IMG/VR virus record: IMGVR_UViG_2737471834_000009
Direction: 5' to 3' (one strand)
Length of the DNA: 33,255 nucleotides
Source of the DNA: a virus
Lineage: Duplodnaviria; Heunggongvirae; Uroviricota; Caudoviricetes
The notes beneath the pieces were generated by a model that saw only the letters and a list, made by a program, of their open reading frames with translations, did no database searches and was not told the DNA's origin. This document shows, in pieces, positions 4,754 to 17,595 of the stretch (positions are counted from its first letter, which is position 1; each line of letters starts with the position of its first letter). The position numbers and the translations under genes were made by a program.

Positions 4754-4811
4754 AAAAAGGGCGGCAGAGCAGTCACGGAGTAAAACTGATACCGCCAAAC
4801 GTCACCAGAAA
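4754..4811 (-). ncRNA. dicF: DicF small RNA (ftsZ-targeting sRNA) with intrinsic terminator
   Basis: Minus-strand sequence TTTCTGGTGACGTTTGGCGGTATCAGTTTTACTCCGTGACTGCTCTGCCGCCC followed by a T-run; GGCGG...CCGCC terminator hairpin; located between ydfC and dicB as in the Qin prophage. Confidence 0.8.
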
Positions 4812-5152: not shown

Positions 5153-5371
5153 TTAACGCGGGTATGTAATCATTCTGGCAATGGTTAATGCCGCTGCTTT
5201 TTCCAGCCTGGTGATATCCTGCTCCAGAGAGGACAGATTTTCAGCCTGCTTAGCCCTGGCTTCATTAGCCCATTTCAGATCCTGCGCTGCATTAATTTTC
5301 TGGTGCATCCACTCATAAAGTTCATCATCGGTATAGTCTGGCGCGATGATGACGGGTTCTCGTTTCTGCAT
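5153..5371 (-). CDS. ydfC: YdfC-like hypothetical protein
   Basis: 72-aa ORF in the expected position and size between ydfB and DicF. Confidence 0.6.
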   Translation of the reverse strand: MQKREPVIIAPDYTDDELYEWMHQKINAAQDLKWANEARAKQAENLSSLEQDITRLEKAAALTIARMITYPR

Positions 5372-5400
5372 ACTGATTCCTCGCGGTGCTGTTTCGCTTA

Positions 5401-5529
5401 TCAGCCGTTAGATTTTGCCGAACTGGAAAGCGCCTGTTTAAATTCGCTGAAGCTGTGAGCTCCTTCGCCTTCGGCAAGGCCTTCGAAGTATTCTTCGTAA
5501 GCCTTTTCCATGATTGTGTCAAAATCCAT
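5401..5529 (-). CDS. ydfB: YdfB-like small protein
   Basis: 42-aa ORF MDFDTIMEKAYEEYFEGLAEGEGAHSFSEFKQALSSSAKSNG translated by hand from the minus strand; below the size cut-off of the ORF track. Confidence 0.65.
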   Translation of the reverse strand: MDFDTIMEKAYEEYFEGLAEGEGAHSFSEFKQALSSSAKSNG

Positions 5530-5530
5530 A

Positions 5531-5686
5531 TCACTCACCTGAGTTTCTTTCCAGCCAGCGACGGGCACCATTTTCGGTTTTAAACGTTTTGCTTTTGGTA
5601 TACGTCATTGCGGTGAAGGTGCCGTCCTGGTTTGGAAACACGCCGTACACCAGAGATTCGTTGTTGCCAAGATCGATAGTATCCAT
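5531..5686 (-). CDS. ydfA: YdfA-like small protein (first gene of the dicB operon)
   Basis: 51-aa product from internal Met MDTIDLGNNESLVYGVFPNQDG...; a start at 5767 is also possible. Confidence 0.6.
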   Translation of the reverse strand: MDTIDLGNNESLVYGVFPNQDGTFTAMTYTKSKTFKTENGARRWLERNSGE

Positions 5687-5865
5687 GCTGACCTCATTTC
5701 CCCTTAACGCCGGGGTAGCGGAACAAAAACCTGCTGCATAGTTATTAAAGTTGAACCCTGCCGTCATGTTCTTACGCCTCGGGCTGGCTACTTAACCCCT
5801 GACCACTGCCGGGTAACTCGAAGTATTGCCTGGCGTTCTGTGGGGCGGGGTGGGTTTATGGATAC

Positions 5866-5895
5866 AATTTACAAATTAAAATTTAACTGGTCAAC
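5866..5895 (-). promoter_or_regulatory. putative pL-like promoter of the dicB operon, overlapped by operator half-sites
   Basis: Minus-strand -35 TTGACC (5894-5889), 17-bp spacer, -10 TAAATT (5871-5866); half-site TTTACAAAT overlaps the -10. Confidence 0.4.
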
Positions 5896-5927
5896 ATGTT
5901 TATTATTAAATTTGTAATTGCGAGCTG

Positions 5928-5962
5928 TTGCATCAGTCCCAAAATGGGACTACTATACAGTT
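5928..5962 (+). promoter_or_regulatory. putative promoter with palindromic operator for the HigB/HigA-like pair
   Basis: -35 TTGCAT (5928-5933), -10 TACTAT (5951-5956), with palindrome GTCCCA-AAA-TGGGAC (5936-5950) in the spacer; predicted start site at or next to the ATG at 5963. Confidence 0.4.
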
Positions 5963-6265
5963 ATGAAGATTATCTCAGTTAAAACACTCAGGGATTTTTG
6001 GGCGGAGAATCCTGATGCAGAACAACCGCTAAGGGCATGGGTGGATGAGGCGGCAAAAGCTGACTGGAAAAGCCCAGCAGACATTAAGGCACAATACCGA
6101 ACGGCCAGTATATTGAAAAACCGGCGCGTGGTATTCAACATAAAAGGTAATCATTACCGTTTAATTGTTGCAATTGCGTATCAGCGAGGATGGGTATTTG
6201 TTAAATTCATCGGAAACCACAAGGAATACGATGCTATTGATGCTGATACCATCGAACTGGAGTAA
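5963..6265 (+). CDS. HigB-like toxin (RelE/ParE superfamily mRNA interferase)
   Basis: 100-aa product MKIISVKTLRDFWAENPDAEQ...VFNIKGNHYRLIVAIAYQ...FIGNHKEYD resembles HigB family proteins from memory; toxin gene precedes the antitoxin as in higBA. Confidence 0.75.
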   Translation: MKIISVKTLRDFWAENPDAEQPLRAWVDEAAKADWKSPADIKAQYRTASILKNRRVVFNIKGNHYRLIVAIAYQRGWVFVKFIGNHKEYDAIDADTIELE

Positions 6266-6267
6266 GC

Positions 6268-6627
6268 ATGAACATCAAACCTATTCGTACAGAGCAAGAT
6301 TATGAAGCCGCGTTGCGTGCTGTTGAACCCATGTTCGACAATGAGCCCGAAATTGACACGCCTGAGGGGGATTTTTTTGAGGTGATGTGTTTGCTAATAG
6401 AGGAATATGAAAAAAAACATTATCCCATTGAGCCACCATCCCCAATTGAAGCTATAAGATTTCGCATGGAACAGCAGGGGCTGACTGTGAAAGATTTGGA
6501 ACCCGCAATTGGGAAAAAAAATCGGGTTTATGAGGTGTTGAATGGTACCAGAAGCCTTACGTTACCAATGATTCGCCGTCTTCATAATCAATTTGGTATC
6601 CCCCTGGAAAGCCTGGTTGGATTATAA
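6268..6627 (+). CDS. HigA-like antitoxin, HTH XRE family
   Basis: 119-aa product with C-terminal helix-turn-helix (LTVKDLEPAIGKKNRVYEVLNGTRSLTLPMIRRLHNQFGIP); starts 3 nt after the toxin stop. Confidence 0.75.
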   Translation: MNIKPIRTEQDYEAALRAVEPMFDNEPEIDTPEGDFFEVMCLLIEEYEKKHYPIEPPSPIEAIRFRMEQQGLTVKDLEPAIGKKNRVYEVLNGTRSLTLPMIRRLHNQFGIPLESLVGL

Positions 6628-6673
6628 AATCTGCTAGTCATTTGCCTGATGCTCGTTCCAGAAAAGGAATGCA

Positions 6674-7072
6674 TCAGGCAGTTTTGTTTTTCTGCCGCAG
6701 TAACTCTTCAAGTTTCCGTTTATAGAAATCGCGTTTTTGCTCCATATCACGAATGATCTGCTCTGCGTCGCTTTGAGGTAACTCATCTAAAAGCGATATG
6801 ATTTTTCGTTGTTGTTCTGTAAGTTGCGGTTGGTTGTCATTACTGGATACAGCCATTTTATCGCCGAGAGTTTCTTCTTCCATAAAGAACCAATGGACGG
6901 GATGTTGTGAGAGCTCTGCTAATTTTTCCAGTTTATCCATTCTTGGCATCACGCCTTTCAACCAACCTTGCACGGATTGGGGTTTTACACCAAGACGTCT
7001 TCCCAGCTCTGACTGGTTTATATTCAATTCCTGCAACACCTGCTGAAGGCGTTTTACAAAGATCATCACCAC
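6674..7072 (-). CDS. DicA-like prophage repressor (HTH XRE family, CI-like position)
   Basis: N-terminal HTH (LNINQSELGRRLGVKPQSVQGWLKG); acidic/basic C-terminal tail resembling DicA; divergent from a cro-like gene across an operator-containing intergenic region. Confidence 0.75.
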   Translation of the reverse strand: MVMIFVKRLQQVLQELNINQSELGRRLGVKPQSVQGWLKGVMPRMDKLEKLAELSQHPVHWFFMEEETLGDKMAVSSNDNQPQLTEQQRKIISLLDELPQSDAEQIIRDMEQKRDFYKRKLEELLRQKNKTA

Positions 7073-7120: not shown

Positions 7121-7162
7121 ATTACAAATAGAAGTTGAAATTTAAATTTAAATTTGTAATTA
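7121..7162. promoter_or_regulatory. putative OR-like operator/promoter region between repressor and cro-like gene
   Basis: Inverted half-sites TTACAAAT (7122-7129) and ATTTGTAA (7153-7160); the same half-sites recur at 5868-5918; candidate -35 TTGAAA at 7134-7139. Confidence 0.45.
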
Positions 7163-13358: not shown

Positions 13359-13639
13359 GAAGGAAACAAAACAGAAACAACAATTGCCGTTACCTGTTGT
13401 TACCATGGCAAGTAAACGTATCTCAGGCGAGCGCATTGCGCCGTTCTGACGCAGATAAATTAGCCTGGATAGAAGGTGCTGGCAATAAAAAATAGCGTTT
13501 TCTTATCGGTGTCGGTAAGATTGCTGCGGGTGCTTGAGGCTGTCTGCCTCAGGCATGCCACTGTAAGGCAGACAGAGAAAAGCCCCAGTTAACATTATGC
13601 GTCCGGCAAGACGCTTAACATTAATCTGAGGCTCAATCT

Positions 13640-13852
13640 ATGAACGGCAAATCTAGGTTAGCCTCTTACGCGCCGAAAGGCAAGGAGAAGCAGGCTATGA
13701 AGCAGCAAAAGGCGATGTTAGTCGCCCTGATCGTCATCTGTATTACCGTCATTGTGACGGCACTGGTAACGAGGAAAGACCTCTGCGAGGTACGAATCCG
13801 AACCGGCCAGACGGAGGTCACTGTCTTCACAGCTTACGAACCTGAGGAGTAA
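13640..13852 (+). CDS. Mok-like reading frame (in-frame N-terminal extension of Hok)
   Basis: 70-aa ORF containing the hok frame, as in chromosomal mok/hok loci. Confidence 0.55.
   Translation: MNGKSRLASYAPKGKEKQAMKQQKAMLVALIVICITVIVTALVTRKDLCEVRIRTGQTEVTVFTAYEPEE
13697..13852 (+). CDS. hok: Hok/Gef family type I toxin
   Basis: 51-aa product MKQQKAMLVALIVICITVIVTALVTRKDLCEVRIRTGQTEVTVFTAYEPEE is near-identical to remembered HokD/RelF; mRNA leader has the tac-like hairpin GCTTGAGGCTGTCTGCCTCAGG. Confidence 0.85.
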   Translation: MKQQKAMLVALIVICITVIVTALVTRKDLCEVRIRTGQTEVTVFTAYEPEE

Positions 13853-17285: not shown

Positions 17286-17361
17286 GGCCCTTTAGCTCAG
17301 TGGTGAGAGCGAGCGACTCATAATCGCCAGGTCGCTGGTTCAAATCCAGCAAGGGCCACCA
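17286..17361 (+). tRNA. tRNA, anticodon CAU (ileX/ileZ-like tRNA-Ile2; tRNA-Met not excluded)
   Basis: Manual cloverleaf: acceptor GGCCCTT/AAGGGCC, anticodon loop CTCATAA, T-loop TTCAAAT, CCA encoded; close to remembered ileX. Confidence 0.8.
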
Positions 17362-17362
17362 A

Positions 17363-17439
17363 CCGCCACTAGCTCATCAGGAAAGAGCGTCAACCCTTTA
17401 AGTTGAGTGTGCGAGGTTCGAGTCCCCGGTGGCGGTCCA
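17363..17439 (+). tRNA. atypical tRNA, anticodon loop CCTTTAA (anticodon UUU, Lys-like, with C at position 33)
   Basis: Manual cloverleaf: acceptor CCGCCAC/GTGGCGG (C1-G72), D-loop with GG, T-loop TTCGAGT, CCA encoded; isotype uncertain. Confidence 0.55.
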
Positions 17440-17441
17440 GT

Positions 17442-17517
<76 letters not shown>

Positions 17518-17520
17518 TAT

Positions 17521-17595
<75 letters not shown>

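Follow-up and report, generated by a model that had tools for sequence, protein, structure and literature searches.

The DNA analyzed here is a stretch of 33,255 nucleotides (nt; IMG/VR record IMGVR_UViG_2737471834_000009), called the window throughout, which derives from a lambda-like Escherichia coli prophage and whose plus strand was read closely from position 5920 to 6700. This region contains a two-gene cassette with the properties of a HigB/HigA toxin-antitoxin pair. The first gene, higB (5963–6265, plus strand), was defined by its reading frame, homology and structure and encodes a toxin of 100 amino acids (aa) belonging to the RelE superfamily (PF09907). The second, higA (6268–6627, plus strand), defined by reading frame and homology, encodes an antitoxin of 119 aa that consists of an N-terminal helical domain and a C-terminal XRE-type helix-turn-helix (HTH) domain. 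The two genes are separated by a gap of 2 nt, with the ATG of higA beginning 3 nt past the last base of the higB TAA stop codon, and a Shine-Dalgarno motif for higA, GGAG (6259–6262, plus strand), is located inside the last toxin codons (CTG GAG TAA), 5 nt ahead of the higA ATG. Upstream of higB, direct reading identified a promoter of the cassette’s own, composed of a −35 hexamer TTGCAT (5928–5933, plus strand) and a −10 hexamer TACTAT (5951–5956, plus strand). Almost the entire 17-base-pair (bp) spacer between them is occupied by a perfect palindrome, AGTCCCA-AAA-TGGGACT (5935–5951), whose final base is at the same time the first T of the −10 hexamer and which is the predicted binding site of HigA or the HigBA complex. 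Exactly 6 nt (ACAGTT) lie between the −10 hexamer and the A of the higB ATG at 5963, and this A is the predicted transcription start, which would render the toxin message leaderless. No GGAG, GAGG or AGGA occurs upstream of the higB ATG, and no core motif is found at −18 to −4. A preliminary description of this DNA had already reported a two-gene plus-strand module of a toxin and an HTH-XRE antitoxin at these coordinates, together with both hexamers and the palindrome between them. All of these elements were recovered, with the palindrome, originally given as GTCCCA-AAA-TGGGAC with 6-bp arms (5936–5950), having in fact arms of 7 bp.

A longer version of the toxin, starting at a TTG at 5918 and comprising 115 aa, is the longest one in the list of open reading frames. 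It was rejected, as the toxin’s homologs measure 100 aa and the additional upstream bases are those of promoter and operator. Of more than 3000 homologs, the best 120 listed are nearly all exactly 100 aa long and begin with MKI, which fixes the start of higB at 5963. The identification of the pair as HigB and HigA was supported by several lines of evidence, among them the profile search and the structure prediction that the preliminary description had proposed as checks. The higB product matches the Pfam family HigB_toxin (PF09907) over all 74 model positions with 113.7 bits (cut-off 27, E-value 4.8e-33), and its residues 1–93 match the HigB chains solved for E. coli and Shigella with an E-value of 3e-7. 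A Foldseek search with an AlphaFold model of the toxin returned E. coli or Shigella HigB as the top seven matches (TM 0.58–0.67, probability 1.0), the best of them being 5IFG, 6KML and 5YCL (TM ~0.66), and these were the only significant structural matches. The candidate catalytic residues K52, N59, R66, H86, Y89 and D90 are invariant in the family and shared with HigB of E. coli K-12. The antitoxin contains an HTH_3 domain (27.1 bits, cut-off 23), and solved HigA matches its residues 6–112 (E-value 3e-9). No NCBIfam model matched either protein, while the RefSeq annotation calls the toxin a HigB family toxin. Taken together, these matches support the assignment of the pair to type II toxin-antitoxin systems of the PF09907 HigB / XRE-type HigA class, i.e., of the E. 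coli K-12 HigBA kind. Toxins of this family are ribosome-dependent mRNA endonucleases whose gene is positioned ahead of that of the antitoxin, and K-12 HigA as well as HigBA bind palindromes in the promoter and thereby repress their own operon.

In a pattern search, the exact palindrome occurred once in the window, whereas chance alone would yield about 0.004 exact matches by our calculation from 4^12. For comparison, the upstream regions of 80 loci encoding toxin relatives with 60–87% identity were aligned, taken from contigs of one genome per species and covering beta-, gamma- and some alpha-proteobacteria. Their consensus reads cTTGc-nnaA-GTCCCA-nna-TGGGAC-TAnacT. The palindrome TCCC-N5-GGGA is present at the equivalent site in 80 of 81 homologous loci and in each of the 80 aligned ones, and since these loci come from different species, its occurrence exceeds chance. 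The −10 element follows the pattern TAnnnT, with its first T conserved in 74, the A in 77 and the final T in 77 of the 80 loci and three variable positions in the middle, and the −35 TTG (T in 65/80, T in 66/80, G in 56/80) is always found 17 bp upstream of it. In contrast, the positions upstream of the −35 and directly downstream of the −10 have an information content close to zero, and as these flanking positions are random, the conservation is not a mere consequence of shared ancestry. The positions on the left palindrome arm that mirror the −10 bases are kept much less often (50/80 and 29/80) and the final T of the −10 has no palindromic partner at all, which argues that the hexamer is maintained as a promoter element and not just as a part of the operator. 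These observations indicate that promoter, operator and their spacing are under selection.

The same comparison bears on the position of the toxin start codon. Of the 80 loci, 42 have 6 nt between the −10 and the ATG, 31 have 7 nt and four have 5 nt, so that a gap of 6–7 nt is found in 73; this gap is conserved in length but not in sequence. By our own estimate, chance alone would place a TAnnnT at one of two fixed offsets in ~3% of sequences. Because transcription normally starts 7 nt past the last base of the −10, it is predicted to set in at the A of the ATG or at the base before it. The toxin start codon is an ATG in 76 of the 80 loci. A Shine-Dalgarno core precedes the antitoxin gene in 67 of 78 loci and the toxin gene in only 15 of 78, with 12 of these 15 being an AGGA inside a TAGGAT −10 hexamer. 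Furthermore, the upstream flanks of prophage, phage-plasmid, plasmid and chromosomal copies are unrelated to each other, which means that no upstream promoter is shared and that the promoter has to be located within the conserved ~40 bp. Thus, the toxin message probably lacks a leader in the window as well as in ~80 related species, and operator and leaderless geometry appear to be a property of the whole subfamily. The start on the toxin ATG without a Shine-Dalgarno sequence, which the preliminary description had read from a single locus, has through this comparison become a well-supported prediction.

Based on these features and on what is known for the family, the following working mode is proposed. 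A HigA dimer, either alone or together with HigB, would bind the palindrome in the promoter spacer and exclude RNA polymerase, leading to repression of the operon by its own products; that HigA or HigBA would bind the predicted operator is deduced from the way in which K-12 HigBA is known to regulate itself. Transcripts starting at the A of the ATG or 1 nt earlier would yield HigB from a leaderless message with low efficiency, a step suggested by the geometry of the promoter, and the first 15 nt of the window higB message are unpaired in the predicted fold. HigA would be translated from its good ribosome-binding site (GGAG), which could keep the antitoxin in excess despite the toxin-first gene order. 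By analogy with the family, HigB would be released once HigA is no longer replenished and would then cut mRNA on the ribosome. Overall, we favor, with a probability of about 70%, the reading that the cassette is a self-contained, autoregulated type II system with an operator in the promoter spacer, a predicted leaderless HigB and addiction as its main role.

Several observations weigh against this reading. The window promoter is a weak match to the sigma-70 consensus (7 of 12 positions) that a promoter pattern scan did not pick up, and the structure model of the toxin is of only moderate confidence (pLDDT 71). Homology alone also leaves unsettled which of the two partners is toxic, because in the PD-lambda-2 defense system it is the HigB-like protein that neutralizes a toxic partner. 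In the Pseudomonas clade the −10 reads TAGGAT, which might serve as a Shine-Dalgarno sequence if transcripts started further upstream. Finally, an E. coli phage-plasmid copy with 88% identity (L085) and a further locus (L056) have a leader of ~20 nt and a Shine-Dalgarno sequence. Inspection of these two loci (L085, 4930–5003; L056, upstream of 4001) revealed two operators each, and their toxin ATG is preceded by AAGGA or GGAG. As natural variants they have departed from the leaderless geometry, and consequently leaderless expression is not obligatory. The weak promoter match and the existence of such variants might imply that the window message carries a leader too, with transcription starting further upstream or with the TAnnnT being just a part of the HigA site, and that HigB is translated without a Shine-Dalgarno sequence in another way. 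The leaders of ~20–30 nt in the related operons of K-12 and phage BP-4795, as well as the small number of leaderless genes known in E. coli, as pointed out in the paper on the regulator PaaR2, would fit such a view. However, it does not account easily for a −10 that is conserved beyond its mirror positions, for a −35 TTG at a fixed distance of 17 bp, for a gap to the ATG that is kept in length and not in sequence, or for upstream flanks that differ completely between genomic contexts. A leader on the toxin message is therefore considered rather unlikely, and the leaderless start is retained as the preferred prediction.

With regard to its surroundings, the cassette is situated between the DicF/dicB early-left operon region (DicF at 4759–4810, minus strand, identified with Rfam) and a convergent CI/DicA-like repressor gene (6674–7066, minus strand), which encodes an HTH_3 protein with a sub-threshold match to DicA. 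This placement supports its assignment to the site where lambda carries rexAB, and the place downstream of cI has been called a variable defense locus equivalent to rexAB. The rexAB-equivalent position put forward in the preliminary description thus holds with respect to the slot between early-left operon and repressor, but not with respect to expression, as higBA is convergent with the repressor gene, has its own promoter and is not co-transcribed with cI. In a RefSeq locus with 99% identity, dicB, ydfC and an exonuclease gene are the neighbors on the left, and genes for an HTH repressor, a Cro-like regulator, a YdaT-family protein and replication proteins are those on the right; in this prophage family, YdaS- and YdaT-like proteins count as analogs of Cro and CII. 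The annotation of the early-left operon itself is in conflict, with one RefSeq genome listing a plus-strand “ECs_2282 family putative zinc-binding protein” over window positions ~5349–5549 and other genomes listing ydfB and ydfA (DUF1391) on the minus strand at 5401–5767.

Directly upstream of the cassette promoter, a comparison of repeats revealed a region resembling oL/pL (5866–5919) that includes a leftward promoter-like site (TTGACC, 5894–5889; TAAATT, 5871–5866). Inverted TTACAAAT / ATTTGTAA boxes are common to this intergenic region and to the one at 7121–7160, and the two regions resemble oL and oR for the CI-like repressor. Since the right-hand oL box ends only 8 bp before the −35 of higBA, bound repressor might affect the higBA promoter. 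A second HigA operator was not found in the window, where the oL boxes of the prophage take the place of the upstream copy seen in some enterobacterial relatives. Downstream of higA, folding-energy analysis points to a terminator (6642–6692, plus strand) consisting of a hairpin (6642–6681; −25.5 kcal/mol, z −3.97, with none of 200 shuffled sequences being as stable) and a T-run. The hairpin overlaps the stop codon, and hence the 3′ end, of the convergent repressor gene, and it is a putative terminator common to both transcription units. A terminator pattern scan missed this hairpin because its loop is long and structured. As the pattern scans called neither element, the case for the promoter rests on the comparison across loci and that for the terminator on folding. 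In other genomic contexts, the hairpin does not belong to the cassette.

The cassette was found in 148 of 5426 complete E. coli genomes, as was the repressor-cro region and also a stretch spanning both. E. coli O103:H2 12009 and O26 E2865 are two strains with this locus. Likewise, all 23 viral contigs in IMG/VR that contain this repressor also hold the cassette. No prophage with this repressor and without the cassette was detected in the complete E. coli genomes or in IMG/VR, for which reason the insertion boundaries could not be set by comparison with an empty site; homology with other prophages ends near position 5856. In one type of lambdoid E. coli prophage, the cassette is a constant element of the immunity region. 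The idea that it is a decaying or inert passenger without current activity is very improbable. One viral contig (L112, ~2396–2751) indeed contains an intact, 100% identical toxin gene next to an antitoxin gene split by a 1-nt frameshift, and the upstream second operator of some relatives is missing in the window, but both genes are intact and 97–100% identical in 22 of the 23 viral contigs, 136 E. coli genomes have the locus with an identity of at least 99%, both genes being annotated as intact in the genomes listed, and all family-invariant residues common to K-12 HigB are retained. The affected antitoxin gene has two runs of eight A’s. Because an unopposed intact toxin would be lethal, the frameshift is likely a sequencing error in one of these runs.

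Sister prophages that share the ydfA/ydfB/dicB left arm differ at the higBA slot. Prophage Sp4 of strain Sakai (L120, 4062–4540) carries a ParE-type toxin-antitoxin pair there, co-oriented with the repressor gene, and another sister prophage (L121, 3787–4053) has nothing in this place, which identifies the slot as a site of variable cargo. Outside this prophage type, close relatives of the cassette occur in P1/D6-like phage-plasmids and on plasmids near partition, H-NS, Hok and Mob genes, and other close relatives are positioned between ybaB and recR or among metabolic genes of Klebsiella. A DNA search of a phage collection matched only the antitoxin gene of phage D6, and a protein search of the same collection yielded only relatives with ~42% identity. 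In D6, a P1-like phage-plasmid (L083, 2501–2860; MF356679.1, 68282–68641), HigA is solitary and has 93% protein identity to the window antitoxin, the toxin beside it is unrelated to the window HigB (E-value 0.039), and sister phage-plasmids possess an intact HigB-HigA pair at the equivalent site. The solitary D6 antitoxin could neutralize the HigB of this prophage. In Salmonella prophages (L126–L128), the cassette has integrated between the tape-measure and minor-tail genes, where it is encoded on the opposite strand, and on the other side of the tape-measure gene these prophages contain PF05015 HigB-like or PF06296 RelE pairs, each with an HTH gene.

The spread over so many settings is typical of a mobile, self-stabilizing cassette. 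The most likely role in this prophage is therefore addiction, by which the immunity region or the prophage would be stabilized, as has been proposed for the ParE-type module of CP-933P. Exclusion of other phages, suggested in the preliminary description by analogy with lambda, is a reasonable idea, and the pair may act in abortive infection as an additional role. In a stronger form, the pair would primarily be an exclusion system and the counterpart of lambda RexAB, with infection depleting HigA and the liberated HigB halting translation before the cycle of the invader is completed. In favor of this, its HigB/HigA core is 42–43% identical to that of HigBAC, a validated defense system from lambdoid prophages, which in phage BP-4795 is situated between cI and N and whose HigB gene is also present in H-19B, in a record annotated as immunity region. 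The components of PD-lambda-2 are matched strongly in PADLOC (PD-Lambda-2_A, E-value 1e-40; PD-Lambda-2_B, E-value 2e-42), and the cassette copies between Salmonella tail genes, which are inserted as a pair and close to other toxin-antitoxin pairs, could be seen in the same light. However, the sensor of HigBAC consists of a SecB-like chaperone and an antitoxin extension (residues 122–218). As the window HigA stops at residue 119, where this extension would begin, and is not followed by a chaperone gene or any other third gene, the only known sensing mechanism of this lineage is missing. In addition, both the peptidase domain and the third protein of PD-lambda-2 are absent from the locus, and the relatives at ybaB-recR, among Klebsiella metabolic genes and on plasmids reside in contexts without relation to defense. 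Exclusion as the chief function thus appears doubtful.

A more speculative variant would assign the leaderless toxin cistron itself a function as a purpose-built feature of the subfamily. Such a cistron would set a low ratio of toxin to antitoxin translation in a toxin-first operon, and because leaderless messages initiate in a different way than Shine-Dalgarno-led ones, toxin synthesis could continue or even rise when canonical initiation or the transcription of the host is perturbed, as might happen on infection by a phage. This would equip a two-gene, chaperone-free HigBA with a trigger of abortive infection within its own message, which in this prophage would act as the exclusion function of the rexAB slot. 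We consider this quite unlikely, and addiction remains the favored main role.

The remainder of the prophage contains two further features of interest. A sok antisense RNA was identified at 13528–13702 (plus strand; Rfam, 111.7 bits), and hence the prophage also has a type I toxin-antitoxin locus of the hok/sok type. Four clustered tRNA genes (Met-CAT, Lys-TTT, Thr-TGT and Gly-TCC) are located in the late region at 17286–17595 (plus strand), and no open reading frame of the size of a Shiga-toxin A subunit follows this cluster.

As a toxin-antitoxin system the pair is ordinary. It belongs to a well-known and structurally characterized family and has already been named by RefSeq in 148 E. coli genomes, always together with this repressor, and two other systems have already been published as toxin-antitoxin cargo of this prophage slot. 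The only unusual point is the promoter, which lies so close to the toxin start codon that the message is probably leaderless. From Synechocystis, leaderless toxin-antitoxin loci have been reported. No report dealing specifically with a leaderless higB or with this operator sequence was found, nor any description of the family-wide design with the operator in the spacer and the start codon at +1, although the coverage of the literature was incomplete and this absence is not proof. A sigma-70 promoter, an operator in its spacer and a start codon at the predicted +1 that are conserved over beta-, gamma- and some alpha-proteobacteria make the subfamily a test case for leaderless translation, and this case bears on the question how toxin-first operons hold their antitoxin in excess. 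Moreover, the pair represents a natural version of HigBAC without chaperone and antitoxin extension in the same prophage slot, and the contrast between the two bears on whether a sensor is needed for protection.

Among characterized systems, HigB-HigA of E. coli K-12 and Shigella (ygjN-ygjM; 5IFG, 6KML, 5YCL) resembles the window pair in its PF09907 toxin, the architecture of HigA, the toxin-first operon, the sequence and fold matches and the presence of promoter palindromes. The identity between the toxins is only 28%, however, and the K-12 operator differs in sequence (CCGTTGCCA...TGGCAACGG). The −10 of K-12 higBA is located ~30 nt upstream of the ATG, so its message has a leader, and this copy is chromosomal and lies outside any prophage. 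A closer relationship exists to HigBAC of E. coli NT1F31, a type that is also found in phage BP-4795. Its HigB is 42% and its HigA core 43% identical to the window proteins, and its place in lambdoid phages, like that of the window pair, is between the early-left genes and cI. The operators of both have a TCCC-N5-GGGA core in common. In BP-4795 (L082, 2945–3000), two TTCCC-N5-GGGAA palindromes flank a TATAAT, and the operator core is therefore shared with the window subfamily despite an antitoxin identity of 43%. Unlike in the window pair, the −10 of HigBAC is flanked by two operators and followed by a leader of ~20 nt, and the genes are on the same strand as cI, whereas the window pair is convergent with the repressor gene. 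HigBAC protects against lambda-vir by means of its SecB-like chaperone, whose sensing of the lambda tail protein gpV occurs in competition with the C-terminal extension of the antitoxin, and without this extension the antitoxin becomes part of a plain toxin-antitoxin pair. The HigBAC antitoxin comprises 218 aa including this chaperone-addiction extension, of which the 119-aa window HigA has no equivalent: its alignment to the BP-4795 antitoxin covers only residues 9–120 of the latter. The chaperone gene is present in BP-4795 (match to PD-T4-9_C, E-value 3e-11) and absent downstream of the window higA. Membership in HigBAC, raised by strong PADLOC matches, was ruled out on account of the missing extension and chaperone.

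Similar considerations apply to PD-lambda-2 (Vassallo et al., 2022), whose A component and the first 119 residues of whose B component match the window pair strongly. PD-lambda-2 B has ~400 aa, carries a peptidase domain at its C-terminus and is itself toxic, with the HigB-like protein acting as its neutralizing partner, and a third protein related to a P4 antitoxin is required for defense. The PADLOC model PD-Lambda-2_B was matched by the window protein only at positions 1–119 of 402. In the window, higA is followed by the putative terminator and then by the convergent repressor gene, and the 80 relatives likewise contain no consistent third gene. Since peptidase domain and third component are both missing, membership in PD-lambda-2 was rejected despite the strong matches.

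Like lambda rexAB, the cassette is an accessory cargo located between the repressor gene and pL and expressed by the lysogen. RexA and RexB show no similarity to the window proteins, and RexAB acts by membrane depolarization, whereas HigB would act by cleavage of mRNA. While rexAB is co-transcribed with cI, higBA is on the strand opposite to the repressor gene and has its own promoter. Given these differences, and with the window proteins being HigB and HigA, the pair was not assigned to the RexAB exclusion system. Parallels in position are paaR2-paaA2-parE2 of CP-933P/Sp12 and the ParE-type pair of Sakai Sp4, type II modules that occupy the slot of higBA in sister prophages whose left arm (ydfA/ydfB/dicB) and right arm (YdaS/YdaT) agree with those of the window prophage. 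The CP-933P module has been shown to be addictive, and it was proposed to stabilize the immunity region by limiting rearrangements. Its toxin ParE belongs to a family unrelated to HigB and, in contrast to the window pair, the module is co-transcribed with the repressor. The leaderless gene in paaR2-paaA2-parE2 is that of the repressor, whereas in the window it is predicted to be that of the toxin.

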